A stretch of DNA of 64,000 nt from Auanema rhodensis. Lineage: Eukaryota; Animalia; Nematoda. Numbering within the stretch: the stretch's first letter is position 1; every line of letters begins with the position of its first letter. Below, one piece after another: positions 5,110 through 53,138 of this stretch. The notes under the pieces are model-generated. The model was not told where the DNA came from and searched no databases. It saw nothing but the letters and a program-made list of their open reading frames with translations. Position numbers and translations under genes: made by a program. The DNA is taken from positions 16,616,001-16,680,000 of the forward strand of contig OZ059895.1 in assembly GCA_964057225.1 (NCBI GenBank). The letters run 5' to 3'.

Positions 5110-5762
5110 ATGGCGGGCTTTTTAATGAAACAAATGGTTGGGAACCAGCTTAATGAGGTTACTGGAGCTCTTGGCGTCGGTGGAAACGCAGATGATGGTG
5201 GTGAGAAGACAGAGACCGGCGAAGACCCAGAGGCATGTTGATTTGTTCTCGTCGGCTTTCTTCCTTTTGACAAAGATCTCTGCTTGAACAGCCATGAGAC
5301 GGCATAGGAAGGCTTCCGCTCAGACAGCTATCTTGTAGGTTGTGGCAGCTCGTTTAGAGCAAGAAGAACGTCGTAAGGAAAAGCATCGTAAAATGGAAGC
5401 AGAAAGAGAAAAGATGCGACAAGGAATCCGGGACAAGTATGCTATCAAGAAGAAGGAAGAGGGTCCTGCTATGGATTTTACCGAAGGGCGTATTGGTGGT
5501 CCTCGTAAAACTCCCGAGGTGCAGATTCTTTCCTTTAATCTTTGTCGTGATATGGTGTTGTGTCATTAGATTGAAGCTTTTCGGACTTTTTTTTTGTAAG
5601 AAAACGGACTTCCCAACTTTTTAGGAGTTGGCCGCTGCAATGAACGCCGAAGAAGACAGCCTTATTGGTCAACTTGGTCTGACTGAGCATGTTGAAAAGG
5701 CAAAAACTTTTGCTACCGGTGCCTTTGAAACTGTGAAAGGATTTCTTCCATTTGGAAAGTAA
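5110..5762 (+). CDS. cpx-1: Complexin, 3 exons (intron 1 is GC-AG, 5233-5338; intron 2 5519-5624)
   Basis: [19 protein letters not shown]...EDPE|[39 protein letters not shown]...[13 protein letters not shown], nearly identical to nematode CPX-1. Confidence 0.97.
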
Positions 5763-6324: not shown

Positions 6325-7746
6325 ATGAACTCTCCGCCATCAGTGAGTGCCGAACAAATAGAGGAATTAGAAAAAGCGAAGTTTGCCATCCCTTCCTGGT
6401 CGGAAAAACCACCTTCTGGTTCACATTTGGATGTGTCCAAAAAGGATCAATTAATACAGGTATGAGGGATTGTTTGTATATACAATAATTTTTCCAATCT
6501 TTAATATATTCAGAAACTGATGATTGATGAAAAGAAAGCTTACTATTTTGGAAGAAATCCAAAAATGGTCTGATTTCCTTTATCCCTCTTAATTTTTGTT
6601 GTTTTTCCTTGCAGGTTGACTTTGCTGTTGAGCATGCTTCCTGCTCTCGTGTTCACGCTTTGCTTATGTATCATGGTATTTTGAAACGATTTGCTATTGT
6701 GGATATGGGCAGTAGTGAGTTGTTTGACATTCATTCCATCATGTATCGAATTTCAATAGCTGTCATACTTTTTTGAAAATATTCTCATCGATTTCCTATT
6801 GCAGGCCATGGCACGTTTGTGGGACAAGTGCGACTAGAACCATTAAAAGTAGTGTTTTTGGATATAGGAACAACTATACAATTTGGTGCTTCGACGAGAA
6901 GGTTTCGATTAATCATCCTTCATAATTATAACTAAAAACTTGTTTTTCAAGGTATACACTTAGGCTTAAAATTGAATCTAATAAGGAAGGAGATGAAGAG
7001 GATAAAGAAAAACTACCAAATGAAAAGGAACTCGAGGTTCGAACTTTGGCTTTTCCTCTCCGTAATCTTCTAATGTTGTAGGATCTTACGGAGTATAATA
7101 CCGCTGTCAATAGGCGAATTCCTCAATTGCCAATTTCTGAAGAAGAGGCGAGACGAAAAAAACGTCCTCGGGGTAATGTGTCATTCATCGAAGAGGAAGA
7201 TATCATCAATCCAGGTTTGTAGTTCCTTCTGTTCACGGTTTTCTTGTCACTCACCCCGTTTTTAGAGGATGTTGATCCTTCCGTAGGTCGTTTCCGCAAT
7301 CTTGTTTCGACAGCAATTATCTCTAATGCTCCTGGCAAGCGCCCAGCCTTTCCACCTGCTCGAGGAAGTGAACCACAAAGAAAGGTGCTTTGTCTTGTCG
7401 CATTCAAGGCAATGCTTATTATTCATTCTTTAGATTGTTCGCCCTGGTCGAGATTTCTCATTCGCTCAAACTAAGAGCTCATCTTTGAGCGGAATTTCAT
7501 TAAATGCCGCTCCAGATCTTGAATTGTACAGCCAGACTCTACCACAACCCGGAGTACATTCTAGTAAGTCATTCTGTTTGCTTGCTTTTCGCTTTGCTTT
7601 GTTGTGTTTTTTTTCAAAACACGCCATATATTGTCTTTGTAGTCGGGCCAACTCCTCAATCTGCAGCAGACGACGATGAACCACATAAGAAGAAATACGC
7701 CAAGGAAGCCTGGCCAGGACGTAAAAATTTAGCTGGAGTTCTATAG
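6325..7746 (+). CDS. PPP1R8: Nuclear inhibitor of PP1 (NIPP1/PPP1R8), FHA domain, 9 exons
   Basis: FHA motifs YYFGRN, HASCSRVHA and SHGTF; central NVSFIEEEDIINPEDVDPSVGRFRNLV; C-terminal KKKYAKEAWPGRK. Confidence 0.93.
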
Positions 7747-9060: not shown

Positions 9061-9803
9061 ATCAATTAGATTAAATATTATTATCTTCAAAATTTATGAT
9101 TGAAGTATAAACATGAAATATCATATTCAACACATATGATTATGAAAAGTTGTAAATGAATGAAGCCTATTCTTAGAATTTTAATCCCATTATTGCTTCG
9201 CTCGTTTAACTTTTCTTCTAAACTATATTAGATTATATAAATACTTGTATAGACAAGTGAAGCATATTACTTTTCAATTTTTAAACTTAATTAGACAAAA
9301 TAAATAATAATATAGAAAGTGTTGACGCTGGCGCACCTTTTTTGCCCAAATGCGATTTTGCAGATTTTCAACAATTTACAAACATTTAAACATTTTTTCA
9401 TTGAAAATCATACTTAATTTCCCCACAATGTGTCATTTTTCAAAAATGACCAAAATTTGTCTGGCGCACCACTTACCCATTTGGCCCACTTTCAATTTTA
9501 CACATTTTAAGCCATTTTAAGACTTATTTTCATTGATTTCTAACCTTCGGTCATCAAAAATGTGTCATTTCAAACAATTTTCAAAAATGGGGAAATGGTC
9601 AAAAAGTGCGTTATAAAAAATGTGGTCGAAATGGTCGAGAAAAATGCGCTAAGCCATCAAATCACAAACATAGGACTAAATTAGGAATAATTTTAAACGC
9701 GAAATTCTAATACAATTCCAAAACCCTATCCAATCCACTTCAATTTAACAGCAAAGTATACCGAATTGTAAATTGTATTTTGAACATAGAATTGGTAAAT
9801 TAT

Positions 9804-11075
9804 TTATTTTAAAAAAGTTGTTAGAGCCTTTTCAAGGCGTTTAAAATACCGATCGAATGCCGCGCGATTAACGTTCGGGTTGTTTTTCAGGACAGGAACG
9901 TTATTCATTTCTTCTCTTGCTCTGTATATATTTTTCTGAAGATTCCACTTTGCAAAAAAAGTATTCAAATAAGCGATATCAAAAGAGTTCAGAATGCTCG
10001 GCTCGACGTCGATCATGCCAAGGTTGATCTGAAATAACAAAAAATATATAAACAGTTGCACAAAAATATAAAAAAAATCACCCCAAAGTCAATAATTCTC
10101 AATTCACGAGAACAGTGTTCGTCTTCCTTCTTTTCGAGTTCAGTGATTTGTTGCTCCACCACTCCATGATTACCCTTGTTCCTGAGCAGATCGCTCAAAC
10201 AAAGTAAGAAAGACAAGATTTTCATCTGATTTCTCATTTCCATATCGATGTAGACTGGTCCGACCACTAAAAAATGAATTGAATTAGATTCATGTATAAC
10301 AATCTAAATATCACCTTCGTAAGAAGTACTCGCTATTATTTCAGAAACTGAGACTCCCGAAGCGGTTCGAAATCCATCAACTAAATTGTCAGATATAAAA
10401 TTAAAAATCAAACTGATGCCCACCTAATTTAGTTGCTATGAAGACCAGATCAGATTTGGTAATATCTGGTATCACATGAAATGGAGTAGGGACAGCTGAA
10501 TGCGAGCTTTAAGAGCAATCTCCCTTCTTCCGACCGTATTACCCGATGTGGTCATTCGTTTGATTTCACTTATCATCTGGACGTATGTCCGCCAATTTCC
10601 CAACATAATATGGCACTGAAATCAGTCAATTAACCAAACGAAAATATAAATAAAAAATATAATACTTAAAATATATATAATAAGTATTTTTGAAAGATTC
10701 TGCCTTCTAAACCAAAGATACTAATTAGGGTGGCGGAGGACTAGCCTTAAATCTATTAAAGGAAATCAGTCGATTAAACAAATAAAAATATAAAAATTCA
10801 ACTTACCACGACAAGTTCCTCAAAATCATTGATCGATTGAAGAGGATGAAGAGAGTCTGGTAGCTCTTCAGAACGAAACTCGATTTGTTGAAATTTTGGT
10901 GGGATATGCGTCACACTCTGAACCTCTATCAATAAATCCGAACGAGAAATCTGTAAATAATTTAAATTTCAGATAAAGCCAATGATCAAAGTTCACAAAC
11001 CTGTGTATCCACAACAATATTTTTGAAGAGTCGATCTTTTTTTTCTCCAACAAGTCGAATCACGAGAAAGACCAT
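9804..11075 (-). pseudogene. Cargo gene: N-terminal ubiquitin-like domain plus atypical kinase-like C-lobe; 6 exons, frameshifted by a probable internal deletion near 10490
   Basis: TTTCAG-a-ATG start. Exons 1-2 read MVFLVIRLVGEKKDRLFKNIVVDTQ|ISRSDLLIEVQSVTHIPPKFQQIEFRSEELPD...EELVV (Ubl pattern). Later exons read FHVIP...VFIATKLVDGF, LSDLLRNKGNHGV and LRIIDFG. Exon 3 changes frame between its two halves. Confidence 0.7.
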
Positions 11076-11299
11076 TCTGAAACAAAAGAATTAATAAATA
11101 AATAAACAGTTTTAATTCAAAGGAAACACGAATATAGCACAAGAACAAGAAAAGGAAGTCTCTTTTCTATTCACAAAAGTTAATGGAAGAATGCAATGTT
11201 GGCAGGTGTCGCGTCGCGTACGTCTAGCTCAACTGTGGCAAATGTTTGTTTGTGCTCGGTCACAGTGAGGAAAAGAAAAGAAGGTCACACAGAGAGAAA

Positions 11300-11846
11300 A
11301 TATCAAAATATAGAGTTATGTTATCAAGATACTGACAGTCTCATATATGACATCAAGACTGAAGATTTCTACAAAGACACTCAAAAAGATATCTCTTTTC
11401 AAAAACATTTTGATTTAAGTGATTATCCGGAAGATCATGTACTTCATTGCAAAGAAAATAAGAAAGTTGTTGGGAAATTTAAAGATGAATTGAATGGAAA
11501 TATTATGACTGAACTACTTGCTCTAAAGCCTAAACAATATGCTTTTAAGTCTCTAGACAATGAAGGAATTGAAAATGAAACCAAGAAAAGTAAAGGAATC
11601 AAGAAGAATGTTGTCAAGAATGAGTTGATTGTCGATGATTATAAGCACAGCCTTTTTAATAAGACTGTTGTAAGAAAGACTCAATATAGTATTAGGAGTG
11701 TTAAACACACTATTTTCACACAATGTCAGAATAAAGTAGCTCTCAATAATGATGAAGTTTCTACAGAACATAAACGTTATATTATTAAAGATAGTCACTC
11801 GACAATGGCATTTGGAAATGTCAATATTAAACCGAATCTTTTATAA
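11300..11846 (+). pseudogene. C-terminal fragment of protein-primed family B DNA polymerase (pPolB)
   Basis: YQDTDSL catalytic motif, KKVVGKFKDE, ALKPKQY, KSKGIKK and K-x-AL...KRY. Intronless; the N-terminal part of the enzyme is missing. Confidence 0.92.
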
Positions 11847-12067
11847 AAGAAATAAAACTGCACTTCTGAAGTCTTCTGAAGTCTCTAATAGCTTCAATAA
11901 TAACAAACAATAATAACCACAATGATGGGTTCCGAATTTTTGAATTTGAAATGTTGAAAGTTCTATTTTTCTATCTTTTCTAGCGTCAGCTAGCTTCCTT
12001 TCAGAAGATCTACTCTTGAGATATTTTATGATTTCTTCTGGTGGATTCAATCCAAAAGAATCAAAAT
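11841..12067 (-). pseudogene. C-terminal half of adenain-type cysteine protease (Maverick PRO)
   Basis: YFDSFGLNPP...QIQKFGTHHCGYYCLLLL, containing the catalytic Asp and the Gln/Cys motif. Convergent with pPolB, stop codons adjoining at 11841-11846; the fragment begins exactly at the right TIR. Confidence 0.88.
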
Positions 12068-13905
12068 AAGGTGCGCCAGCGTCAACACTTTCTATATTAT
12101 TATAAATAACAACCCAAAGGATATATTGCTTGAAATATGTTGAATCAACACCAAATTAAGAGTGTATCTTGTTGAAACAGTTCCCGCCAAAGTCTAACAG
12201 CATAATCAATCTGTACTCATGAAAGCGGAAACAGCATTATTTTTAGGATTGTATTAACACAAAGAAGACTTCAAGCAGTTTATGAAAATAACGAAGACTC
12301 CAAAAAATACTTTTAAATATGATTTTTAAAATTTTTAAGATTTTTTTCTGAATTTTTGTAGTTTGTGTCAAAAGATGGAATCCAGTGAGTGTCCCAACTA
12401 TTTCGCACAGGACTGTATATAGCAATGCATCTATATATTCCTAAATAAACTGTATATATAGATTAATAAATAGCATAATCAAGTCTTTTATTGAAATAAA
12501 AACTAAAATAGTGAAACGTACTTCATGATTCGTTTAGTTGTTGTTGATTTTTTAATTCAAAAAATGACTGATAATTTGAATCTATGAAATAAAGAAAAAT
12601 GAATGTTCGACAGATTCCGACGTGCTCTGAATGAACTGAGCAATATTCAGGCATCTAATCAGGAAGATAGAACATATTGTATCTATATTTATATACTTAT
12701 GTATTCATTTTCCAACATTTACTTATTTGAAATCTGCTATATATTACTACATTATAGTTTTATTTCTATTGATATTTGGCTCTTAATGATTGTTTGCAGC
12801 TAAATTTGCTAATATTGTCTACATTCACGAATCCTGCAGTTATCTTTCTTTTACATTTCATGAAATATAATGTTTTATAGAAATTTAGCTTTTAATGTAA
12901 AGACATTGACAAAATTAAAAATATTTGATTAACTGTAATATTTAAAAGTTGGAAAAAACAAAAAGTATGTACATGATGTTGTAGATTTATAGCTTGAGCT
13001 AGACATTTCTATTACAATATCAACATTTAAGTTATTTTTTGTTTGGAAGACAGAGAAAGGGGGGGGGGTATGAGATTTTTCTTTTTTTTCTCTCCAGTAT
13101 TCATTCTGATTTTGAAAACTTTTGCTGCTGGGTTATAGTTCTTTAGAAATTAATTATCAAATCATCTTGTCTAACAGGTAAATATCATGGAACATATTAT
13201 TATATATGGAAGCATAGTCAATGATTCTATGCATAACTGTAGCTTTGTCGTCATTTTTTCTATAAAATCATACAATTTAATCTGATTATAATTGAATTAA
13301 TATTTTGTAATATCTCTTCTTTAAGTATGAATGATATTACAGTGCTCGCACACCCGAAATGATTGAGATCTCATCAGGATGTTCACATCTAGTTAATGGT
13401 ATATATGCTTTGCTATTAGGCACAACATCACAGGTAAGAACATAAAACTGTCAAAACCCCCATCAAACGCTTATATATGAATCCAGACGTTTATGAATAT
13501 TAAAACTTTATTGAAGTTTGCAAACAATGTTGTTGTGATAATAGCAGAATAATTTTCTCGTTGGAAAAGCAGGAAAAGAGTTTCGAAAAAAAAAGTAGAG
13601 AAGAGAGGGTAATGATTGAAATTTGTACGATATGCAACTTATTCTTATTCTTAGCCGCATTTTTTAAACTATTTTTGTTATTAACTATCTAACTGCGAAT
13701 TAGTTTGCATCATAATAGACATATATGAAAACGTTTTGATCAAACAATTTCGTAACTATTGTTTGTGATATAAACCAAAATATATCTTTTTTGCAATCAT
13801 ATATTTTCATAATTATCTAATATATATATGTATTTTGTTTTTCTTTAACATTATGTTTGTACCATGCGTTAAAGTTATGCTGGAACCAGCTCATTTTGCT
13901 AATCC

Positions 13906-14466
13906 AGTAGTAGTAGTTTATAAGTGCTAGCTGAACCATCTAATCACCCTTTTAACAGACCCAATGAGTTCCTTCATTATTTGAAGAATCCAAATTTACA
14001 ATACGAACTTCTCTTGGCTGTATTTGAGTAGGCAAAGTGTCTCTCACAAATATTTCACGAAAATTCGTGATTTTTAACTCTTTTACAAGTTCCAGGAGAT
14101 CTAGATTTGTTAGAGCTTTTAGGTCTTTCTCCAGATTAGTCATTTAGTATTCAATTTTTTCTTCTTAATAATCATGATTCACCCTTAAAAGCATGAAAAG
14201 CTGAATTTCATAGTTTTCAAGATATTCATGATATAAAGCAAATTATTATCCATATTTTCAAACAATTCAAGCGCAAAATTGTTAGAAAAATGATAAAAAT
14301 CTCATCACCCTATTTTGGGTGTCATGCGCGCTAGACTCTCAGTCTTTGAAAACCTCAAATTGAAACAGAATAAAGCTTAAATGGAAAAAAAATAGTTGTT
14401 TTATTATGAAAAATGTTTGAAATGCAGTATTTTAAAAAAAAGGGTGATTAGGTAGTTCAGCTAGCA
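13906..14466. mobile_element. Second small Maverick/Polinton derivative
   Basis: Inverted repeats matching at 27 of 29 bp (13925-13953 and 14438-14466, TGCTAGCTGAAC..CTAATCACCCTTTT), preceded by AGTAGTAGTAGT (13906-13917), a typical Polinton terminus. Contains a protease N-terminal half. No TSD found. Confidence 0.75.
13952..14143 (-). pseudogene. N-terminal half of adenain-type cysteine protease
   Basis: LTNLDL...NFREIFVRDTLP...IVNLDSSNNEGTHWVC with the catalytic His motif; truncated by the inverted repeat. Confidence 0.88.
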
Positions 14467-20861: not shown

Positions 20862-20933
20862 TCCTCGGTAGTATAGTGGTGAGTATCCGCGTCTGTCACA
20901 TGCGAGACCCGGGTTCAATTCCCGGCCGGGGAG
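20862..20933 (+). tRNA. tRNA-Asp (GTC), copy 1
   Basis: TCCTCGG/CCGGGGA acceptor stem, CTGTCAC anticodon loop, GGTTCAATTCC B box, T-run terminator. Confidence 0.96.
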
Positions 20934-21471: not shown

Positions 21472-21543
21472 TCCTCGGTAGTATAGTGGTGAGTATCCGC
21501 GTCTGTCACATGCGAGACCCGGGTTCAATTCCCGGCCGGGGAG
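21472..21543 (+). tRNA. tRNA-Asp (GTC), copy 2
   Basis: Identical to 20862-20933. Confidence 0.96.
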
Positions 21544-26060: not shown

Positions 26061-27501
26061 ATGGAACGTTTGTTTATTTATGGATCAATCACTAATGATC
26101 CTCTATATAACTGCAGGTAAAAGCTTAATATAAGTTTTTTAATCGATATATTGAATGATTAAGTGCTAGAACTCCGGAAATGATCAAACTATCTACAGCT
26201 ACTCCTAATTTACCGTTTGGGATTGGTCTTCTGGTTTTGGGTACTGTTACAGAAGTCAGTAGTTACAAGTTTTTTTTGCTTATAAATTTATGTTTAGTTT
26301 GTTCTATTTCCCTGCATAAAAGTCATGCTTGAACCTACTAACATTGTCTACCCAGCCTATAAGCTTATGACATCTTTGAGCATTTGTGATGTCTTTTCGG
26401 TCATTGGAACTTGTTGCTTGACTGGTGAATCCAAGATTATACTCACCTTTATATATTTAAGACATATACTAATTCAGGAGCATTATCCATCTTTGGGGTC
26501 TCTTTCTGTGATAGCCCTAATATCATATACATGCTAGGATCTATTACTGGAGGTAAGATCTTCTGACATCATTCTGTTTCAACCTCAACAAACCATTTTA
26601 AAGGTCTATGGATTACATCATCTCTTCTTTCATTAGCATTAATTACAAATCGACTAGTTGCTATAGGAAGTGTGAAGTATGTTTGATCTTTAGTCAATAA
26701 ACATCATCTCTCCGATCTCAGAGGTTCCTTACTCAACTATCTATTCAACGGAAAAAGCACATACTTTCTTATAATCGGTGCTGCTCTTATCGGATCTTAT
26801 TATGCAATGCGACGTCATCCTGTAATCCTTCATATAAACCATTTGGTCCCAATTTGGGATCCATTAATTTACCCAAACTCTCTTCATCTTGTAAGTTATA
26901 GCTTTTTAGTGAAAGCTGCCAGATCATCATTATATATTTCTTTAAGTATTTTGATAATTTCCTTCTGTTCAACAATTGCTTCATCGTTAGTTGTACAGCT
27001 ATACTCTACATCGTATTCTGCTTTAAAATTGCCAATACGGTCAGAAAAAACAAAATCGCATCAAACATACAAACCCAAAAATCACGGGTAATCAGAATAC
27101 ATCTGACATTATGGCTTACAACACAACGATTTCAGTTCTTTGCTCAATGTTCCGTTATTGTGGGCTTTAATTGTACTGCTGCAGCTATGTACATCTTGGC
27201 TAGCATTATCAATTTGCCAATTTTTTTACAAGTGTTCGCGGCTTTATCATATCCATTAACTATAAGTAAGTAAACTAATTAAGAAAGAAATTAACCGTCT
27301 GTCTCTGCAGCTGTACCTGCTTATGCATACTTATTCCTCAACAATACCATACGTAATGGAGTTAAAAAGCTCTTCTGTAAAAACAGTGCTCAACATTCTA
27401 CACATGTTTGTTAGTTTCTTTAATCTTTCTTATATATGTATTCCTTTTCTGAAGACGACGTCAAATCTACGGTGGCCGCTAACATGCGAACAATGGAGTA
27501 G
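26061..27501 (+). CDS. Srt-family 7TM chemoreceptor (copy 4); last-exon frame ambiguous (stop at 27501 or 27526)
   Basis: MERLFIYGSITNDPLYNCSARTP, AYKLM, FCDSPNIIY, ITNRL, FNN, QC and PAYAYLFLNNTIR. Confidence 0.83.
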
Positions 27502-28022
27502 TACCCGTATAGGTGATTACGTTTAACACGTAAATCATAATTAATTTGAAATTAACTTCAATAAGGAGATAATAAGCTATTATTAAACATGACCTATGAA
27601 TGATATATAAATATATTTAAAATATATGATTAATTAAAATTATTATACTATAATAATATGAAATTATGCAAAATATTTAAATTTGGCACGTTTATACTAC
27701 ATAAAAAATCTGCAACTTCAGAGAATAGCGGAAATGAAAACATATACTATTTTAGGAATGTATTCTTTTCCGATTACTGGAACAGAATATCTTGGTACAA
27801 ACAACAAGTTGTAAATCTCATACTGATTAAAAGTTTTTGGTTTTGCTACACGATATTTAACTCAAATGAGAACACAAAAGTACCAAAGGTATAAGCATGA
27901 AACACTCAAAACTTGAAATACTAAGAACTTGTACTAAACGTGATTACATGATTTCTTTCTAGAGTGGAAAAAAATGAAATGAATCATAATAAACTAAAAT
28001 AATACATTAAAAATTAATTGAA

Positions 28023-29530
28023 TTAGAAACCATGACCATTTTTGCTACTATAATATATTACATCAACAGTACTAGTCTTAGAACGTAAGCAGCAAGCTTT
28101 AAAATTGTTGTGGTTCCTATATTCTTCATAAGCTTGATTATAGGCATGTTTTTGTCCAACACATATTCCAATGACACCTTTACGTATAGTATGATTTAGT
28201 AACAAATACGTATATGTTGGCATAGCTAAATATTAAATAAAAGTTTCATCAAATACGTCAAGTTTATACTTAGTGTTAGAGGATAGACGAAAGCAGAAGC
28301 ATATAGAACTATATCTGATAAACATATTATATTTGCGAGAATGTATATGCAAGCAGACAAAAAGTTCAAACCAACAATAATGCTGCATTGAGCAAAAAAC
28401 TTAAAAGATAAGTATTAACAGGTGTTTGATCAAAGTCATGAAGCAACCCTCAGTCGCTGTTTATGCACATGTGAGCTCCTGTTCTCTGTGACCGTATTGG
28501 CAATTTTAAAGCAGAATACGATGTAGAGTATAGCTGTACAACTAACGATGAAGCAATTGTTGAACAGAAGGAAATTATCAAAATACTTAAAGAAATATAT
28601 AATGATGATCTGGCAGCTTTCACTAAAAAGCTATAACTTACAAGATGAAGAGAGTTTGGGTAAATTAATGGATCCCAAATTGGTGTTAGAAGATGAACAT
28701 GAAATATTGTTGGTGGATGAAATATCATAGAGTACAATGCAATACTAATAGCAATAACGATATAAAAATACACATTCTTTCCATCAAATATAAAATGAAG
28801 TTTAGAATTTCTAAATCAAAGACATTTCCAGCCTTTCGAACATTCATACATCGTTTTACCCTGCAGTTATGCCAATAGCAATCAAACGATTAGCAATGAG
28901 TGCAAGAGAAATCTGAGAAGACATAATCCAAAATCCTCAAGATGATCATTATAAAATACTATCGCATGCGCTTGCATGTTAGTGTGTTTCGAATTTATTA
29001 TTCGAATTTTTTAATTGACAAACCTCCAGAAACGATATTAGCTACATAATTCAAATTAGGCCAATCACAGAAAGATGTCCCAGTGACAGATAATGAACCT
29101 GAAAAGTATATGATTAAGTAATATTAACTTTGATTTTATAAAATTAATGAAGTAATGCTACCATATATACAGCAGACGACGATAATTGAAATCATGTCAC
29201 CGATGCTTAAAGCTGCCATAAGCTTATATGCTGAATGAACAAAGTTATGAGGCGCTAGCATAGCTTTGACGCATAGAAAAAGGAAAAACTGAAAAAGGAA
29301 AAACGAGGTATTTGTTATAATGATAATAAATTATACCTCGGTTACTATACCTATAACTAGAAGAAATGTACCATATGGAATATTAGGAGTAGCTGTAGAT
29401 AGTTTGATCATTTCCGGGGTTCTAGCACTTAATCATTCAATATATCAATTAAAAAACTTATATTAAGCTTTTACCTGCAGTTATATAGAGGATCATTAGT
29501 GATTGATCCATAAATAAGCAAACGTTCCAT
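28023..29530 (-). CDS. Srt-family 7TM chemoreceptor (copy 5), convergent with copy 4
   Basis: MERLLIYGSITNDPLYNCSARTP, AYKLM, FCDWPNL, IANRL and PTYTYLLLNHTIR. Confidence 0.83.
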
Positions 29531-30308: not shown

Positions 30309-33300
30309 TTATTTCTGACGATACCAGTTGTCCCAGGATCGACTGCCTAACAGAAAAAAAAGAGAATTAATTTGAGCATTTCCCGAACTAACCTCCCATT
30401 GATTTTTCGCCAAAATCAGATCCGTCATCGAAAAGAGCTCTAGCATTCGGACGCAACGCTTGCGAACCTATGAATCGAATATTCGAAAAATTATATAAAT
30501 TCAAACTGACCACTTGCTGAAATTCCCATAGGCAAATTTCCAATGGAAAATGTTCCGCCATTCATTGGTTGCTGTTTAGTTACTTCAAAAATTAAAATTG
30601 TTTGAATTCAAGAAACAAGCAATCAGAGCTTACCACTTCCTGACATTCCCATAGGCAAATTTCCAACGGTAAGAGTTCCACTCTTTCTATTTTTCTGTCC
30701 ATTTACTTAAAAATTAAAAATGTTTGAATTCAGAAACTTGATGAATCAGTGAAATAAGGAATCAGAACTTACCACTTCCTTGGATTTCCATAGGCAGATT
30801 TCCAATGGAAAATGTTCCGCCATTCATAAGTTGCTGTTCATTTGCTTAAAAATTAAAAATGTTTGATTAAAGGAACTTGATGAATCAGTGAAATAAGGAA
30901 TCAGAACTTACCACTTCCTTGAATTTCGATAGGCAGATTTCCAACGGTAAATGTTCCACTCTTTGTAGAGCCAGATCCTACATATTTAAAGTTAATATCG
31001 AAATATGGATTAGAAGAATTAAAGTTTCTAACTTACCTTTTACTTCTCCTTTAGCGAAAGATTCAGCAATCTGCTTACGTAATTCAGGAGTAACCTCTCC
31101 CATGAAATTTGGAATGTACTGCTGTTCATTTACTTAAAAATTAAAATTGTTTGAATTCAGAAACTTGATGAATCAGTGAAATAAGGAATCAGAACTTACC
31201 ACTTCCTTGGATTTCCATAGGCAGATTTCCAACGGTAAATGTTCCACTCTTTGTAGAGCCAGATCCTACATATTTAAAGTTAATATCGAAATATGGATTA
31301 GAAGAATTAAAAATTCTAACTTACCTTTTACTTCTCCTTTAGCGAAAGATTCAGCAATCTGCTTACGTAATTCAGGAGTAACCTCTCCCATGAAATTTGG
31401 AATGTACTGCTGTTCATTTACTTAAAAATTAAAAATATTTGAATTCAGAAACTTGATGAATCAGTGAAATAAGGAATCAGAACTTACCACTTCCTTGAAT
31501 TTCGATAGGCAGATTTCCAACGGTAAATGTTCCACTCTTTGTAGAGCCAGACCCTACATATTTAAAGTTAATATCGAAATATGGATTAGAAGAATTAAAA
31601 ATTCTAACTTACCTTTTACTTCTCCTTTAGCGAAAGATTCAGCAATCTGCTTACGTAATTCAGGAGTAACCTCTCCCATGAAATTTGGAATGTACTGCTG
31701 TTCATTTACTTAAAAATTAAAATTGTTTGAATTCAGAAACTTGATGAATCAGTGAAATAAGGAATCAGAACTTACCACTTCCTTGAATTTCGATAGGCAG
31801 ATTTCCAACGGTAAATGTTCCACCATTAGTATGATGCTGTCCATTTACTTAAAAATTTAAAATGTTTGAATTCAGAAACTTGATGAATCAGTGAAATAAG
31901 AAATCAGAACTTACCACTTCCTTGGATTTCCATAGGCAGATTTCCAACGGTAAATGTTCCACCATTGATAGGTTGCTGTCCATTTACTTAAAAATTTAAA
32001 ATGTTTGAATTCAGAAACTTGATGAATCAGTGAAATAAGAAATCAGAACTTACCACTTCCTGGAATTCCAATAGGCAGATTTCCAATGTTAGGTCTTCCA
32101 CCATTGGTATGATGCTGTCCATTTACTTAAAAATTAAAAATGTTTGAATTCAGAAACTTGATGAATCAGTGAAATAAGAAATCAGAACTTACCACTTCCT
32201 TGGATTTCCATAGGCAGATTTCCAACGGTAAATGTTCCACCATTGATAGGTTGCTGTCCATTTACTTAAAAATTTAAAATGTTTGAATTCAGAAACTTGA
32301 TGAATCAGTGAAATAAGGAATCAGAACTTACCACTTCCTTGAATTTCCATAGGCAGATTTCCAATGTCAGGTCTTCCACCATTAGTATGATGCTGTCCAT
32401 TTACTTAAAAATTTAAAATATTTGAATTCAGAAACTTGATGAATCAGTGAAATAAGGAATCAGAACTTACCACTTCCTGGAATTCCAATAGGCAGATTTC
32501 CAATGTCAGGTCTTCCACCATTGGTATGATGCTGTCCATTTACTTAAAAATTTAAAATATTTGAATTCAGAAACTTGATGAATCAGTGAAATAAGAAATC
32601 AGAACTTACCACTTCCTTGGATTTCCATAGGCAGATTTCCAACGGTAAATGTTCCACCATTGATAGGTTGCTGTTCATTTGCTTAAAAATTTAAAATGTT
32701 TGAATTCAGAAACTTGATGAATCAGTGAAATAAGGAATCAGAACTTACCACTTCCTGGAATTCCAATAGGCAGATTTCCAATGTCAGGTCTTCCACCATT
32801 GGTATGATGCTGTCCATTTACTTAAAAATTAAAAATGTTGGAATTCAGAAACTTGATGAATCAGTGAAATAAGGAATCAGAACTTACCACTTCCTTGAAT
32901 TTCGATAGGCAGATTTCCAACGGTAAATGTTCCACCATTGATAGGTTGCTGTTCATTTGCTTAAAAATTTAAAATGTTTGAATTCAGAAACTTGATGAAT
33001 CAGTGAAATAAGGAATCAGAACTTACCACTTCCTGGAATTCCAATAGGCAGATTTCCAATGTCAGGTCTTCCACCATTGGTATGATGCTGTCCATTTACT
33101 TAAAAATTAAAAATGTTTGAAATCAGAAACTTGATGAATCAGTGAAATAAGAAATCAGAACTTACCACTTCCTGGAATTCCAATAGGCAGATTTCCAATG
33201 TCAGGTCTTCCACCATTAGTATGATGCTGTCCATTTACTTAAAAATTTAAAATATTTGAATTCAGAAACTTGATGAATCAGTGAAATAAGGAATCAGAAC

Positions 33301-36300
33301 TTACCACTTCCTTGAATTTCCATAGGCAGATTTCCAACGGTAAATGTTCCACCATTGATAGGTTGCTGTTCATTTGCTTAAAAATTTAAAATGTTTGAAT
33401 TCAGAAACTTGATGAATCAGTGAAATAAGGAATCAGAACTTACCACTTCCTGGAATTCCAATAGGCAGATTTCCAATGTCAGGTCTTCCACCATTGGTAT
33501 GATGCTGTCCATTTACTTAAAAATTAAAAATGTTTGAAATCAGAAACTTGATGAATCAGTGAAATAAGGAATCAGAACTTACCACTTCCTTGAATTTCCA
33601 TAGGCAGATTTCCAACGGTAAATGTTCCACCATTGATAGGTTGCTGTCCATTTACTTAAAAATTTAAAATGTTTGAATTCAGAAACTTGATGAATCAGTG
33701 AAATAAGAAATCAGAACTTACCACTTCCTGGAATTCCAATAGGCAGATTTCCAATGTTAGGTCTTCCACCATTGGTATGATGCTGTCCATTTACTTAAAA
33801 ATTAAAAATGTTTGAATTCAGAAACTTGATGAATCAGTGAAATAAGAAATCAGAACTTACCACTTCCTTGAATTTCGATAGGCAGATTTCCAACGGTAAA
33901 TGTTCCACCATTGATAGGTTGCTGTTCATTTGCTTAAAAATTTAAAATGTTTGAATTCAGAAACTTGATGAATCAGTGAAATAAGAAATCAGAACTTACC
34001 ACTTCCTGGAATTCCAATAGGCAGATTTCCAATGTTAGGTCTTCCACCATTGGTATGATGCTGTCCATTTACTTAAAAATTTAAAATTTTTGAATTCAGA
34101 TACTTGATGAATCAGTGAAATAAGAAATCAGAACTTACCACTTCCTGGAATTCCAATAGGCAGATTTCCAATGTCAGGTCTTCCACCATTGGTATGATGC
34201 TGTCCATTTACTTAAAAATTAAAAATGTTGGAATTCAGAAACTTGATGAATCAGTGAAATAAGGAATCAGAACTTACCACTTCCTTGAATTTCCATAGGC
34301 AGATTTCCAACGGTAAATGTTCCTCCATTGATAGGTTGCTGTTCATTTGCTTAAAAATTTAAAATGTTTGAATTCAGAAACTTGATGAATCAGTGAAATA
34401 AGAAATCAGAACTTACCACTTCCTGGAATTCCAATAGGCAGATTTCCAATGTTAGGTCTTCCACCATTGGTATGATGCTGTCCATTTACTTAAAAATTAA
34501 AAATGTTGGAATTCAGAAACTTGATGAATCAGTGAAATAAGGAATCAGAACTTACCACTTCCTTGAATTTCCATAGGCAGATTTCCAACGGTAAATGTTC
34601 CACCATTGGTATGATGCTGTCCATTTACTTAAAAATTAAAAATGTTTGAATTCAGAAACTTGATGAATCAGTGAAATAAGAAATCAGAACTTACCACTTC
34701 CTGGAATTCCGATAGGCAGATTTCCAATGTTAGGTCTTCCACCATCGGTATGATGCTGTCCATTTACTTAAAAATTAAAAATGTTGGAATTCAGAAACTT
34801 GATGAATCAGTGAAATAAGGAATCAGAACTTACCACTTCCTTGAATTTCCATAGGCAGATTTCCAACGGTAAATGTTCCACCATTGGTATGATGCTGTCC
34901 ATTTACTTAAAAATTTAAAATGTTTGAATTCAGAAACTTGATGAATCAGTGAAATACGAAATCAGAACTTACCACTTCCTTGGATTTCCATAGGCAGATT
35001 TCCAACGGTAAATGTTCCACCATTGGTGTGATGCTGTCCATTTACTTAAAAATTAAAAATATTTGAATTCAGAAACTTGAAGAAACGGTGAAATAAGGAA
35101 TCAGAACTTACCACTTCCTTGAATTTCCATAGGCAGATTTCCAACGGTAAATGTTCCACCATTGGTATGATGCTGTCCATTTACTTAAAAATTTAAAATA
35201 TTTGAATTCAGAAACTTGAAGAAACGGTGAAATAAGGAATCAGAACTTACCACTTCCTTGAATTTCCATAGGCAGATTTCCAATGGAAAATGTTCCGCCA
35301 TTCATAAGTTGCTGTTCATTTGCTTAAAAATTAAAAATGTTTGAATTCATGAAACAAGCAATCCGAGATTACCACTTCCTGCTAGTCGTACAGGTAAATT
35401 TCCAACGGTATGAGTTCCACTCTTTCTATTTTGCTGTCCATTTACTTAAAAATTAAAAATGTTTGAATTCAAAAACTTGATGAATCAGAACTTACCACTT
35501 CCTTGAATTTCCATAGGCAGATTTCCAATGGAAAATGTTCCGCCATTCATAAGTTTCTGTTCATTTGCTTAAAAATTTAAAATGTTTGAATTCATGAAAC
35601 AAGCAATCAGTGATTACCACTTCCTGCTAGTCGTACAGGTAAATTTCCAACGGTATGAGTTCCACTCTTTCTATTTTGCTGTCCATTTACTTAAAAATTA
35701 AAAATGTTTGAATTCAAAAACTTGATGAATCAGAACTTACCACTTCCTTGAATTTCCATAGGCAGATTTCCAATGGAAAATGTTCCGCCATTCATAAGTT
35801 GCTGTTCATTTACTTAAAAATGAAAAATGTTTGAATTCATGAAACAAGCAATCCGAGCTTACCACTTCCAGAAATTCCCATAGGCAAATTTCCAACGGTA
35901 AGAGTTCCACTCTTTCTATTTTGCTGTCCATTTACTTAAAAATTAAAAATGTTTGAATTCAAAAACTTGATGAATCAGAGAAATAGAGAATCCGAACTTA
36001 CCACTTCCTTGTAAGTTTATACTTCTAGCCTTTCTTCTAGATCCAAGAAGACTGGCAATAGGGTCTAGAAATATATTATAGAAGCACAGCAACTATTTAT
36101 ACAATACCTCCAGCAAGAGAAGAGAAAGGTGAAACATTAGTAACGGTACCAGACGAGGGATCAGTTCCAAACTCCCATACACCACCAAAAGACGAACCTA
36201 CATATTTAATAATTGCGTAAACTGATAAATTTGTTCAGACCTATGCTGAATCCATTAGGTGAGGAACCATAACCGACTCCACCTCCAAAGTGGCTGTTTG

Positions 36301-41731: not shown

Positions 41732-44700
41732 TGTTGTTGATGATAATGCTGTAATGAATGAGAGAAATATTGTAGTTTTCTTTAATAATCATATTATTGT
41801 AGTTCGATCAATCAAAAACATACATAGTATATAAAGAAAATGAGGAAAATCGAATGAAAACAAATGCTTTTTTTCCGAGTTCAATGTATATGACGATGTT
41901 ATGTATGGTGACAATCCTTCACATCTTTATTATATTATTATATCGGAAAATTATTTATAATTTAATTTATATACATATATATATTTAAAGTAAAATGTGC
42001 TTTTTCCTCTTTACCTCTCTCACCACTTATCTCCCTTGTCGTCATCTCTCTTCATTCATCCAATCTTCAGCTACAGATGTCTGTTATTTTTAGTTCTCAT
42101 GCATTAACTAGTCTTGTCAGTCTATATCATATAGCCAGAAGCACATAAATTGCTCTCATATCCATTGTATTCATATATTATATTCATCTTTTCATCTTTT
42201 CATATGCGATATTTTCATTGAAGATATACAAAAAAAATTGTAAAGTTTCTTTTGTTAAAAATAGTTTTGAAACGAAAGAACCTCGTCGATACTCTCACAC
42301 ATGGCTTCGAATAGTATCATGGCAGATGGTCTATTGAAATTTCGTGCTAGTCAGTAGTTAATAATCATTTTCTTTTTCTCTTTTTTCTCCATCTCTCTAT
42401 ATCCATCTCTCTTTTTCTCTCTGTGTATATGCAAATACTCTTTTATATTCTTTTTTAATTTCTGTGTTCATCTAATTACCGTAAAATGGAATGAAAATCT
42501 GCTTGATGCTGACGTTCAGCAGATGTTTGTCATTCATCTTTCGTTTGTCTTTTCAGATGTAACTCGTGAACTGATCATGATGAGCATCATCATGTTGTTA
42601 ACGTCGTAGCTTTGCTATCTGAAATCTAGGGATTCTCTAACCTCGTCTCTCTTTCATTCTCCATCTCCTCGTGGATTCTCCCGTCTTCGGAAAAAATTTG
42701 CCGAGCTGTTCTTGAAAAATCATATTTCATTCCCCAATCCCTTTCTAAACCTTGCTGTCTGTTGAAGATTTATTTTGTCGTTTTCTTTTGCCATTCAGTA
42801 CGACGAGTAATGATTGTTTTCAAACGTATGATGTCAAATATTATATGAAGCAGTATCTCTTTGCCTTCTCTTGATTCTCGTAATTGACTCTATCTCGATA
42901 CATCAATGATCTATCTTTTACTACCATTTCACCTCCCTCCCACCTCCTCTCTTTATTTTTCTCTCTCTATAGATATATCTCCACGTATGTATGGCAATCA
43001 GATTTAACAATGGATAGATTGAGGAGGGCCTTTATCCAGGTGATGATGTCGTCTGCATTGTTACAGACAAACGACCACGATCACGACGATGAAGAAGAAA
43101 CCATCTAATTCATCTGCCAGATAGCATCTGGTCATCTGATTGTACAAACCGATAGAGAAACGAAACAGGATCGAATCGATAGTTATGTTTGTGCATTTAC
43201 CGAAGTTGAAACTCTTTTCATTTATGATGCTATGTAAACCAGTATTCTTAAAAACTGAATTACTGGATATTTTCTTGTCGTTTCTTGAATCTATGAATAA
43301 GCCACAAATGCTGCCAAAGACGAAAAGATCTCAAGTTAATCTAACTGTTCTCACATATTCATGAATAGTCAAGCTTAACATGATAATGTAAGCTCATTTG
43401 ATGTCAATTAGCCGCATAACATGCTATATGCTGCTGATGCCCACTTTACGTATGGCTCATTCATTTAACAACATATTTTGACCACGGTGAACACGTCACA
43501 CCTCATTCTCTTACATCTCTGATGAGCCAAGCACGGCGATACTACTAACGAGCGAGCGAGCGACCGGATGAATTCATACATACCGGGCGTTCGCACCTCG
43601 TCGTCATATTCATTGTCGTGGGACATGGGGAGTCTAGCGGCATCATGAAGAAGGTTTAGCACCTGCTGCTACTGCTGTTGAGACGCAAGAGAAGGAGGAG
43701 ACGACAATCAAAACTTTTTCTTTTACTGCATCAGCTTTTTTTCTTTCACTTATTAATGTTTATAGGTCTTTTGAACTATCCCTCTCTTTCCATATCTCGC
43801 CTCTTCCCTCTCCCCTCTCTCTCTCTTTATGTGATATTCTTTCTAGTACTTTTCTCTTTTTCTTTACTTCCTACACCTTGTAACCTTTCTCTCTCTCTTT
43901 ATATGTCTGTCTGTCTCTCTTTAATCCTCTCTATCTCTAACAATATTTCTCTTTCTGTTCACGGCTGACATGACCATCATCAAGGTCATGCCTGCTGAGA
44001 AGACGACACAACGATATGAGGCAAGTCAGTGTATTCATAGATCTGTAAAGACTCACAACCGTGAGGATCACAATTATTTGGGTAGAGATTAATCTCTAAA
44101 GCACGTCTTGATATGCCATTTATAGTATTTCCACTTATTGTCTTTGATTTTTCTATTTTTAAGTTTCTCTCTGTCTCTCTCTCTCTCTGTTTCTACTTGG
44201 CTCTACTCCCTGTTTAATCGTCCTCACATCTTGATATTCCTTTTAACCTCCTATCAAGCTACCTCATGACATTCATTCCATAATCTTTCTCTCATCCCCT
44301 CTCCTTTCTCATCAAAGTTTTCTTTCTCTTTAATCTTAATTCCAGCAATTTGCTCTAATATAGATTGCTTTTTATATGTTAAATTGCTGTTTTTTTGCCC
44401 CATTTTCACAATTTTTTCAACAAACATAATCTGAAATAGACATCCGTCTTCTCATCATCAGAGTCAAATGTCTGGTGTTCGTCTCTGTCTTCTGATGAAC
44501 ATCATACAATGCATGACAGACGATCATTTACAGAAGTCAAATAAGGCGGAGACAAGTTGTTCATGTAGTGCATGATGCATCATCACTGTTTCATCACATC
44601 ACCACACATCTGCATTAGCTTGACAGCCATCCGATGAGATGTTGCTATTCTCTTCCTCTTCTGTAGTCAGATCAGCAAAAACTTGAAGTTTTTTCTGAAC

Positions 44701-46079
44701 GAGTATAAGCACCTTCACTACTTCATCGTTCTTTAGCTGAAAGCTACAGCTTCATATCAAATCAGCTTGGCAGCCAAGCGCGTGTTGAAGCTGTTGAGCA
44801 AGCTCGTGCACCAGAATGAAAATTTTCCAGAAGTCGCCTTATAATTTGATTAGATTTAAATTATTTTTTATAAACTTTTTTGATTTTTTCTTCCCTTTTT
44901 TGATTTAATTTTCATTGCATTTCAGTCATTTTGATTCTTCTCTCATCTAAAATAATACTTGTTCTTTGTTCAATGTTTCATCTATTTATAACATACATTT
45001 CGCGCATTTCTTATGTCATTTCCACAACGTTCATGACTGATTTCGCATTTTTCCTGTCACTTTTCCCAAATCAGAATTTGATGAAAATCGTTGATGATGT
45101 ATATAGAACATCATGTTCATACAAACTTGTAGAAAGCATTTAGTAGTAAAATCTATCTTGCTCAAGTTCATCATTTGCTCATAATTCCTCATATTTTCCT
45201 TCTATTTCATGATCTGCTGGGCTCTCACTCTCTCTTTCTGTATCTCTCTTTTCCAGCTAAATTTCATTTTTCTCTATTATTTTTCATGAAATAAAGGTTG
45301 ATTGAAGTTCTCAGTTTCAACACCATCAAAACAACCGTCTTTTCTCATCGTTACATTACTATTTTCAGCTCCTTTTTCAGCCGAATGGCTAAATGTATTT
45401 GAGATTAGGTTGTAATGGAGTCCTCCATTTCATTTCATCTAAATTCTTACCAGTTTTTATCTCTCTTTCTGTCTCTCTTTCTCCTTTCCTCATTGCCTTC
45501 CATGCCTCACATGCCTCCCATGCTTCCCATCTTGTCATCCTCACCACCAGCATTTCCAAACATCCTGTTGACCTTATTTGGATGGCTAGCTACGTTCAAT
45601 GGCAATTGCTGAAATCATCAGCTCTACATGGCTAGTGAATCAGCCGAATAAATAGATGAAAGAGCTCACGTTAGCGTTGAATGGATAAACGAATTGGCAT
45701 CGGATTTCCACTAACTAAATGCTGACCACCATTCGTTGTCTCATATCTGCATTTCCTTAGCTCCATTCCTATCTCTCCCTCACTCTCTCTCCCTCTCTCT
45801 CTCTCTACCTCTACCTCCCTCTCTCTATTTCTTTTTCATTTTTCTCTTTTGTTTATTTCGGGTTTTTCTCATTCTTCACCATTTTCTACTCATGGATTCA
45901 CTATATGTCCCTAGTTCTGACAAATTATGGCCTTTACGTGCCAGAAAGAAAGGAAGAGAAAGGCCACATTGGCTATTCGGGGTTCTGTGCTCGACGATTC
46001 CATCTCTTCTTTTCGGTCGTCATCGACCCAAAAATCAAACTATCTATCACCTCATATTCTCAATTTTATTAGGAGGTCT

Positions 46080-46083
<4 letters not shown>

Positions 46084-46118
<35 letters not shown>
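46084..46118. repeat. (CT)n microsatellite
   Basis: Direct reading; one of many CT/GA tracts between 42 and 55.7 kb. Confidence 0.9.
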
Positions 46119-46121
<3 letters not shown>

Positions 46122-47798
46122 TTTCGAACCATCATCACATGCCTTGTGTGGAATATGTTTCAAACACAGTCATGGTCAAAGTGTCTGTCAGAAGCACCAA
46201 TGAGTAACCACAAATGAATTGAAGTTAATGTGTATGTATATATGCATATTGATGATCTTATAAGGTTTTGACATGCTGTCTCTTCCATCTCTCTCTCTCT
46301 TTCTCTTACTCTCTGTTGTCTTTTCACTTCTCCTTATTGGCTCATTTTCTCTTACTATCTCTCATCTTACTCAATTCAATCTTTCAATATTCCTCACTTT
46401 CTCTTCGCATTCCTATTTCCCTCCCTCTCCATCCTCCCCCATATCTCTCTGTCCTGTACACACCCATCACTATGTGTTTGACCGATCACAACTGAGTTGG
46501 CTGTTGCTTCTGCTTAAACCAATAAATGGTAATGTTCATCATCGTTTATTTAGTTCTAACGGTAAGCTGATGAGCTTCGTTCAGTTACTAATGCTTCTTC
46601 CTCTTCCCATTTTAATTCTCTGAGCTGTCTCGTTTTTATTATTTCATTCTGTCTGTCTTCTTCCTCCCTCGATAGATAGATGATATTCATCCTCTTCTAT
46701 CGGGGTGGTTTTCAGCTCACTCGCATTCACTCACTCAGTTCGCTCACTAGCCATTCAGCCACGTTTTCCCGCTCTCATTTTCAAATTTTTTTTTGCACAA
46801 AAAAAAAAGTTTGTTTTGGTCTTACTAGCATGTTATCTCCAAATAAGTTAGAGAAAGTAATCAACGCAGCATGACGGGATCTCTGATCGACAGCTTGCTT
46901 CTTCCTCTTGTGCCTCTTCCCCTTCTCCCTAGGTTTACTTTTTCTCTCATCTATTTTGCAGGACATCAGAATCTTGCGGTCAAGAGCTTGACTCTTGAAA
47001 ATGTTGTTTCAAACTCTTTGCTATTTCCATTATGTCGTTCTTTGCTTTTTTTCCTTCTTTGCCTTTGAACATTTCATGTTACGCAATCGACATCTGTCAG
47101 ACTTTGTGCCTGATAGACATAACGAAGGAGAAGCTCAACTGGCTAGCAGTAGAAAGTCATAAGGGGCTTCCCTTCCTCTCATTTCATGAATTTCAGTCTA
47201 TATATGGCATAGATGAGAGTAAGACAGAATATGATAGAGAGAGAGAGAGAGAGGGGAGGGAGAGAACAGAGGACATATATCATGTCACTTCTTCCTTCTT
47301 GTTGTCCAATTCATAGATGGAAACAAGCAGATAAGGTTGTAGATCAATTTAGCTTCCTTCCGGATCATCAATCCATTTCTTTTGCAATGTAAAAGATATA
47401 CATATTCCTTCAAAGCTTGTAAAATAGTTGATTACTTCAGTCAAGCTAAGACCAAGTTGTTGGTTTTGGCAGTCCATGAGGCTAGTAATTGGTCATTCAA
47501 ACTTTTGAACACTTTTTCACAACTGGCCAGCTACGAAAGCTTTACTTGCATTATACAATTGCTGTTGTGAGATCTGCGAAATGACGTTTTGAACAGCGAA
47601 AATAGCGCCAAAACTAATGTTGAACAAAAGAAATATAAAATGAATAGCAGAGAGAAAGCACAACGAAACAGACCGTTCCTCATGTCAGCTTTGAGTAAAA
47701 TAATGCTGACAGCTCACGTGAAATCCACGTGGGAATTCAAATTTATCTCCGAAATTGAATAAAAGGTTGTGAGAAACTTATAAAATAGAAAAAAAGAT

Positions 47799-47802
<4 letters not shown>

Positions 47803-47857
<55 letters not shown>
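47803..47857. repeat. (GA)n microsatellite
   Basis: Direct reading of the sequence. Confidence 0.9.
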
Positions 47858-47860
<3 letters not shown>

Positions 47861-49542: not shown

Positions 49543-49546
<4 letters not shown>

Positions 49547-49602
<56 letters not shown>

Positions 49603-49606
49603 TCTC
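49547..49606. repeat. (CT)n microsatellite
   Basis: Direct reading of the sequence. Confidence 0.9.

Positions 49607-51557: not shown

Positions 51558-51561
<4 letters not shown>

Positions 51562-51599
<38 letters not shown>
51562..51599. repeat. (CT)n microsatellite
   Basis: Direct reading of the sequence. Confidence 0.9.
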
Positions 51600-51602
<3 letters not shown>

Positions 51603-52619: not shown

Positions 52620-52657
<38 letters not shown>

Positions 52658-53077
52658 AGTTTCTCTTTTTATCTGTTTTTTTCGTTTTTTCATAACATCG
52701 GTCACTCTTATTCATATTTTATTTTTAATTTTTTTCAAAGAAATAACTTAGAATTTTTCAGAACTACAAGCAATTTCCGTCGATTAGACTTGACAGCAGC
52801 AAAATCCAGAAACGGCTCATACTACTTCAACGACATTTTATTTATTTTTTTTCGTTTTTCTTTCCTTTTCACTCCATTTTTTGTCATTTTTCTCTCTTTT
52901 CCTATTCACAAATTCTCTGACCGAAAGTAAATTCATACTCAAAAACTTAGTAGTGGCTTTTCATGTCTATCTGTTTCAGCCCCTTCTACTTCTAAGTACT
53001 ACTGGTTTTTTTGGTCTGTCGAAAATCTCAGAATGATCTTCCTTATGTGTGTACCATATATACATAATAAAACTAAA

Positions 53078-53138
<61 letters not shown>

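Follow-up and report, generated by a model that had tools for sequence, protein, structure and literature searches.

The closest described counterparts of the gene studied here are the KRMA proteins. The accessible text of the paper that surveyed them counts 532 members across 107 nematode species; 121 of the 532 have a Maverick core gene at no more than 6 kb, the criterion used in that paper (bioRxiv 10.1101/2022.07.12.499685). One of them, Cwal-KRMA-1, is 430 aa long, carries a ubiquitin-like domain (Ubl) at residues 1-73 and is structurally like MavQ, CtkA and Shewanella HipA. According to the same text, KRMA introns are conserved across distant species, the Ubl is modular and swapped between Mavericks, most Mavericks are incomplete, and cargo sits with the left terminal repeat on one side and the integrase on the other (bioRxiv 10.1101/2022.07.12.499685). 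A circular C. bovis Maverick scaffold of 17,366 bp is also described there; P0073, one member of the family assembled below, lies on a C. bovis contig of 17,369 bp, a likeness of size alone. PMC10680173, as far as its accessible part goes, repeats the KRMA result. The accessible text of a study of nematode Polintons records these elements from Auanema rhodensis, and the words cargo, krma and kinase have 0 occurrences each in it (bioRxiv 10.1101/2023.08.22.554363). The main text of the KRMA paper never mentions Auanema (0 occurrences). A literature search, with most subscription papers outside its reach, found no papers that treat KRMA in Auanema or the function of KRMA.

Here, we describe a locus on the minus strand (11075-9804) of the stretch of DNA under analysis, which is 64,000 nucleotides long and is called the window below. 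It is very probably an inactivated copy of a KRMA cargo gene, i.e. a spliced, internally deleted and frameshifted Ubl-kinase gene brought horizontally by a Maverick to an Auanema-type nematode. Exon arrangement, deletion, splicing, neighbouring genes and conflicting trees are directly established. The gene has six exons and five GT..AG introns of 50, 191, 43, 48 and 53 nt, and P0001, a protein of C. auriculariae, matches every exon. Exon 1 (11075-11001) holds the ATG and the first 25 Ubl codons, and exon 2 (10950-10807) the remaining 48. Together they give the 73 codons, with the pattern THIPP..Q.I.F, in which the first-pass annotation had seen a Ubl of ~73 aa; 48/73 are identical to P0001, and exon 2 matches the family profile at E=1e-11. 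Exon 3 (10615-10424) starts with a post-Ubl helical segment, crosses the deletion junction (~10480-10490), changes frame, meets a stop at 10474-10472 and continues into the out-of-frame end of the N-lobe. Exon 4 (10380-10315) encodes the hinge and the start of the C-lobe, with 18/21 residues identical to P0001 and both flanking joints seen in RNA. Exon 5 (10266-10082) carries both the catalytic loop D-L-x4-G-N and the IIDFG that had been noticed earlier, and exon 6 (10028-9804) the C-terminal helices and a stop, with 68/74 residues identical to P0217 of C. briggsae.

Introns 3-5 appear as CT..AC joints in RNA contigs, and at least three of the five cargo introns are still spliced. Introns 1-2 were deduced from homologue alignments across both junctions and from the size of contig X10-3, whose 223 unlisted nucleotides (845-622) match the summed length of exons 1 and 2 with 4 nt to spare (144+75+4). 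The RNA evidence consists of contigs from X10 and X13, two runs of one study on organism A; the window was compared with the contigs of 8 out of 20 listed sequencing runs. We took X10 and X13 as RNA because their contigs skip GT..AG introns of host genes and bear a 5' leader, presumably the SL1 spliced leader. In the pieces listed, these contigs are identical to the window over exons 3, 5 and 6. A 33-bp duplication had raised the idea of a missed micro-exon in intron 2, which was dropped because the alignment of P0001 passes straight from exon 2 into exon 3. All five cargo acceptors are YAG, as previously claimed. Yet this is no sign of foreign origin, as had been proposed, since 9/10 host introns seen in RNA also end in YAG, the other in AAG, and at the host rate the chance of five out of five is 0.59. 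RNA joints place the AAG acceptor in an intron (6902-6951) of a host gene at 6.3-7.7 kb, and show another host intron with a GC donor (5233-5338). By their translations, we take these genes to be NIPP1-like and complexin, respectively. GC at third codon positions is higher in the cargo gene (117/292) than in the host gene ALG10 (92/309) and in the neighbouring polymerase fragment pPolB (44/182), a comparison that we set aside as a signal of origin given the too few host genes.

The deletion predicted by the first-pass annotation, an N-lobe loss with a frameshift near 10490, stands. The window matches residues 1-118 of P0001 and then residue 235 onward in a different frame; ~120 codons are gone at 10480-10490, where the match jumps from residue ~115-118 to ~235-239, and exon 3 corresponds to residues 74-118 plus 235-256. 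The exons sum to 887 nt, which is not a multiple of 3, the first stop comes at 10474, and the predicted product has 120 residues. The break is not an assembly error, because DNA contig X5-19 covers 9623-11000, break included, with zero differences, and RNA contigs X10-3 and X13-6 cross the junction without differences. An alignment of 77 family members shows the strongest conservation among kinase columns, in the numbering of P0006, at K198 and E222 (73/76 each), D309 (71/73), N316 (67/73), G318 (72/73) and D343 (73/74), the last four being the D, N, G and D of the two exon 5 motifs. K198 and E222 (K197 and E221 of P0001) fall within the deleted span together with the glycine-rich loop, and the catalytic Asp, Asn and DF of the cargo gene lie beyond the stop at 10474. 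An active kinase would carry the full catalytic set in a single frame; here loop, Lys and Glu are deleted. Judged by its sequence, the window copy is thus a pseudogene, predicted to be catalytically dead and to encode no intact kinase.

A search with exon 5 returned five proteins out of 16 candidates: P0002 and P0003 of C. briggsae (96% and 98% identity over 48-54 aligned residues), P0001 of C. auriculariae (89%), P0005 of Halicephalobus (75%) and one Logan protein. P0001 in turn picked out 10 of 2245 candidates, and nine of these were built into a profile that gathered 676 cluster representatives at E<=0.001, 67 of them at 1e-30. When 30 family proteins were looked up by name, 22 were from nematodes, one from a fly assembly and seven were nameless; the nematode genera among named members include Caenorhabditis, Auanema, Mesorhabditis, Panagrellus and Aphelenchoides. 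Several intact relatives are 412-434 aa long. The relatives recovered from C. briggsae are fragments without exception (127-129 aa). P0003 is a C. briggsae gene model of 344 aa in which a remnant of the kinase C-lobe is fused to a weak Trypsin_2 match (E=0.003, below cut-off), possibly what is left of a KRMA gene next to a WASP/WOSP protease. The fly-assembly match (Bradysia odoriphaga, E=4.5e-57) is full length and annotated on a 4.1-Mb contig. It and some unnamed proteins with kinase motifs and a different N-terminus (together P0086, P0204, P0197 and P0212) may stem from contamination, from a transfer into an insect or from a domain source outside the nematodes. A metagenome scan with P0001 gave no match among 196 candidate stretches, and a BFVD search returned no close viral relative, only weak ubiquitin and kinase matches (best E=4e-4).

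Domain profiles see little of this family. Pfam gave nothing above cut-off for the exons of the window, exon 2 included, nor for the Maverick pieces described below, and its ubiquitin profile matched 16/77 family members. The Pkinase profile matched 0/77 at E<=0.01, HipA and actin-fragmin 0/77 each, and PI3_PI4_kinase a single member (E=7e-4). We turn to the fold of an intact relative, P0006 of C. tropicalis, which has 422 aa and shares 53% identity with P0001, modelled with AlphaFold2 and a 77-sequence alignment (pLDDT 91.1, pTM 0.85); the structural statements below concern this protein and not the peptide of the window. In a wide structural search, its residues 1-77 match Ubl domains (best Z 10.8, rmsd 1.8, 73 aligned). 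Residues ~150-422 match H. pylori CtkA (3akj; Z 10.6, rmsd 5.6, 204 aligned), and the kinase part also matches actin-fragmin kinase (1cja; Z 10.4, rmsd 4.3, 206 aligned), Shewanella HipA (Z 10.2, rmsd 4.8, 189 aligned), CotH (5jda; Z 10.1), PI4KII-alpha (4pla; Z 9.6), Legionella MavQ (7m7a; Z 9.5, rmsd 4.2, 203 aligned) and Fam20 (Z 9.3). These kinase-fold scores (~9-10.6) are moderate and tied, at 9-14% identity, and hence do not distinguish protein from lipid substrates. All 11 Foldseek matches in the PDB at E<=0.001 are of ubiquitin type, with the Rio2 kinase at 1.3e-3, and ubiquitin-like chains alone occupy the best 60 of 263 matches of profile A1 to PDB sequences. In the ESM Atlas, the kinase domain sits beside unnamed clusters of nematode and bacterial proteins (0.93), with HipA_2 and actin-fragmin clusters at 0.89, which is only a lead. 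The fold first suggested from the letters, akin to PI3/4K, HipA or actin-fragmin kinases rather than to typical protein kinases, is thus matched by the model, and the typical loop HRDLKxxN is absent from the aligned family. Intact relatives are predicted, from this model, to be phosphotransferases of the HipA/CtkA type.

Does the gene belong to KRMA or to a separate Maverick-borne Ubl-kinase family? The first-pass annotation had left both possibilities standing. The window's subclade, with members in C. briggsae, C. auriculariae, Halicephalobus, C. tropicalis and C. angaria, forms its own 100/99 branch holding 9/20 rows of the kinase tree, and its catalytic loop is longer (D-L-x4-G-N) than the D-L-H-x2-N of many other members. 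Likeness to KRMA was, moreover, judged against the published description and not by alignment to a named KRMA sequence. Yet a single profile gathers this subclade and the others, and length, Ubl at 1-73, structural neighbours, taxa and Maverick association all fit the description of KRMA. We consider a distinct family improbable and retain the krma-like half of the proposal; on architecture, fold and context, membership in KRMA is the most likely assignment. The Ubl adds a further point of comparison. Exon 1 is identical at 23/25 positions to P0080 of Caenorhabditis sp. 36 (19/25 to P0001), and exon 2 at 36/48 to P0113 and 35/48 to P0013 (29/48 to P0001), while the kinase parts of P0080 and P0113 themselves are distant or missing. 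The nearest relatives of the Ubl exons thus differ from those of the kinase exons, in line with domain swapping between Mavericks. This mosaicism is drawn from exon identities and not from the Ubl tree, because the latter is poorly resolved (8/24 branches starred).

The Maverick association that had been proposed for the gene is visible in its neighbours. A 3' fragment of pPolB, the protein-primed DNA polymerase (family B) of Mavericks/Polintons, lies on the plus strand at 11298-11846 and starts ~225 bp upstream of the cargo ATG. It carries the motif YQDTDSL and has lost its 5' part; it shares 37% identity with the polymerase of L001, a viral contig (E=1e-18), and scores 0.97 to a DNA/RNA polymerase superfamily cluster in the ESM Atlas. 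Convergent with it is the 3' piece of a Polinton-type protease gene (11841-12068, minus strand), which matches L001 at 2027-1977 in tblastn (E=6e-6). The 5' piece (13952-14143, minus strand) matches L001 at 2218-2058 (E=9e-9), directly upstream of the match of the 3' piece. The H, D and C motifs of this split gene fit the adenovirus-like protease of Polintons. The two pieces are ~1.9 kb apart in the window and joined directly in contigs of 5/8 runs (X5, X9, X11, X17 and X18). They lie 0.8-3 kb from the cargo gene, which, with pPolB, puts Maverick core genes well inside the 6 kb used for KRMA. Searched against PDB sequences, the protease pieces returned nothing meaningful, viral-contig scans with both pieces gave none, and PHROGs gave nothing below E=0.03. 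With the one distant element L001 as query, we found no integrase, capsid, ATPase or other Maverick genes in the window; only pPolB and protease pieces being recovered, the element is a fragment.

No clear pair of terminal repeats was found near the cargo gene. A high-depth repeat beyond its 3' end (9340-9650, no strand assigned), common to organisms D and E and with pieces in X11, X17 and X18, reaches a summed depth of 514-800 in X5 against ~90 on the flanks. By its position, it is possibly what remains of a left terminal repeat. Among the contigs listed, none bridges host flank and cargo over the repeat at 9333-9623. Other short high-depth repeats flank the pPolB-protease piece, at 11206-11299 (also present in organisms D and E) and at 11973-12706. 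Two inverted pairs, 9304-9343/12064-12103 (40 bp, 97.5%) and 13925-13953/14438-14466 (29 bp, 93%), enclose one Maverick piece each, and the protease gene is interrupted by the 1.9 kb that lie between these pieces. This arrangement may be a trace of the break-up of the element or of its patching into the host. Elsewhere, the window holds a tandem array of a 139-bp unit (30554-36082, ~30 copies, mostly 90-97% alike) and a CT-rich microsatellite region of ~13 kb with strong negative GC and AT skew (42000-55000). It also contains a nested inverted duplication of a membrane-protein-like gene pair (26061-29530; 333 nt at 80% and 196 nt at 90%), with similar duplicated ORFs at 15.6-20.2 kb, and genes for tRNA-Arg(ACG) (1115-1189) and tRNA-Asp(GTC) (20862-20933 and 21472-21543).

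The foreign origin that the first-pass annotation had suspected is supported by the conflict between two trees. The ALG10 gene of the host (58521-59447) shares 75% identity with its counterpart in Auanema sp. JU1783, at most 57% with the others of the 57 hits listed and 47% with C. briggsae; in its tree (20 rows, with 19 named hits of the 57) it pairs with Auanema sp. JU1783 at 100/100, a host placement given by this single gene. In the kinase tree, whose 20 rows are the named members with enough C-lobe, the kinase half groups instead with two C. briggsae proteins at 99/97 and then with C. auriculariae, with 94% identity over 128 columns. The path to C. briggsae measures 0.065-0.073 for the kinase half and ~1.4 for ALG10, i.e. 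it is ~20-fold shorter, by hand-summed branches. As anticipated for a transferred gene, nucleotide identity is also high in two other organisms. In organism D, identity is 95.7% over 9625-10022 and 97.5% over 10007-10479, a piece of 473 nt that includes 144 nt of introns, and organism E has pieces at 96.7-97.2% in DNA-like contigs and at 97.1% in a spliced contig. Host flanks are absent from these matches: in both organisms the host genes at 5-9 kb are covered by traces only (at 85% likeness). Both copies continue past 10479 with sequence absent from the window (304 and 247 nt), so that the deletion point of the window is not common to them. Six listed differences from organism E were examined, out of a table with 38 further rows; they fall in five codons, four of which change the residue, each time giving that of C. 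briggsae. The gene thus likely reached its Auanema-type host by recent transfer from a Caenorhabditis lineage, or is shared with one, as far as these comparisons tell. The depth of X5 over the cargo gene (82-102, against 90 on the flanks) gives a weak hint that this run has no second close copy. A polymorphic insertion, suggested by the lower depth of X9 to the right of 9600, was set aside, as X5 has a similar, weaker trend, this part is AT-rich and depth is no copy number.

These observations allow a putative history of the gene. In intact relatives, the Lys and Glu of the N-lobe would hold ATP and the D-x-x-x-x-x-x-N and DF motifs would catalyse and bind metal. The N-terminal Ubl would set the abundance of the protein, a role suggested for the sister cargo MSFT-1 in the accessible text of the KRMA paper (bioRxiv 10.1101/2022.07.12.499685). 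After insertion into the Auanema-type host, the element would have broken up, and the gene would then have lost ~120 codons with the glycine-rich loop, the Lys and the Glu. Its own promoter and introns may still yield spliced RNA, in which the reading frame would end after 120 residues, the Ubl and two helices; with a frame ending there, no kinase activity is expected.

The broken copy might conceivably have been kept for a new job, with selection acting on the Ubl-helix product of 120 residues or on the RNA as such. Correctly spliced RNA contigs identical to the window in two runs, exons 1-3 that stay open up to the deletion and the splicing of at least three of five introns would all be expected under this scenario. 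Yet both RNA runs come from one study, and a recent arrival, with ~3% divergence, accounts for the intact signals without selection. Moreover, among the listed differences from organism E, the four codons out of five that change the residue are what drift predicts. The early stop, standing upstream of three introns, would also make the RNA a target of nonsense-mediated decay. We think such retention unlikely. One might speculate further that, after a recent crossing between Caenorhabditis and Auanema, the host uses the truncated product or RNA against incoming KRMA-bearing Mavericks, an early domestication in which the RNA could serve, for example, as a source of small RNAs; we see little chance of this. 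Least credible of all is that a vertically inherited host gene lies beside Maverick debris, or that foreign DNA was mis-assembled into the window: Auanema sp. JU1783 does have family members of its own (P0011 and P0077) and, among the listed contigs, none crosses the repeat that separates the gene from the host flank, but these two proteins sit in other branches and match exon 5 at 6-9/61 residues, the distance to C. briggsae is far smaller for the kinase half than for host ALG10 (0.07 versus ~1.4), and the runs with difference-free host genes also carry the cargo gene difference-free, in DNA (depth 82 versus 90) and in RNA.

A dead KRMA copy brought in by a Maverick is thus the reading that we retain. 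What is new here is the transfer between Auanema and Caenorhabditis, which the main text of the KRMA paper does not name, and the novelty is small. It adds one well-supported case of Maverick cargo crossing nematode genera, at ~97% nucleotide identity to a C. briggsae-like lineage, in which the new host splices foreign introns correctly. The case further points to a KRMA subclade whose intact members could serve to find the substrates of KRMA kinases.

How does the locus compare with known systems? With nematode Polintons, including those of Auanema rhodensis as given in the accessible text, it shares pPolB and protease genes, although the element in the window is only a fragment (bioRxiv 10.1101/2023.08.22.554363). 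With HipA-like kinases (3akj, 4pu3, 5k98, 1cja, 5jda, 4pla and 7m7a), the family shares the catalytic fold, as seen on the model of the relative (Z 9.4-10.6), and the D...N and DF motifs; these kinases are 9-14% identical to the relative and none has an N-terminal Ubl. The WASP/WOSP proteases and the msft-1/tlpr-1 element, as the accessible text presents them, are likewise Ubl-fused Maverick cargo that moved horizontally, but they encode a serine protease and not a kinase, and the toxicity of MSFT-1 was demonstrated by crosses (bioRxiv 10.1101/2022.07.12.499685). That the gene in the window may be raw material for selfish toxin elements, as the first-pass annotation suggested, is neither favoured nor disfavoured by the present data. 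KRMA is the closest match. In complete elements KRMA adjoins the integrase, whereas the cargo in the window abuts a pPolB fragment, and the window copy is frameshifted and has lost ~120 codons, the conserved Lys and Glu among them. Yet the two have in common a Ubl at 1-73, a fold like those of MavQ, CtkA and HipA and a length of ~420-430 aa (fold and length being those of intact relatives), introns, proximity to Maverick genes, a conflict between gene and host trees, high intron identity across distant species and a modular Ubl.
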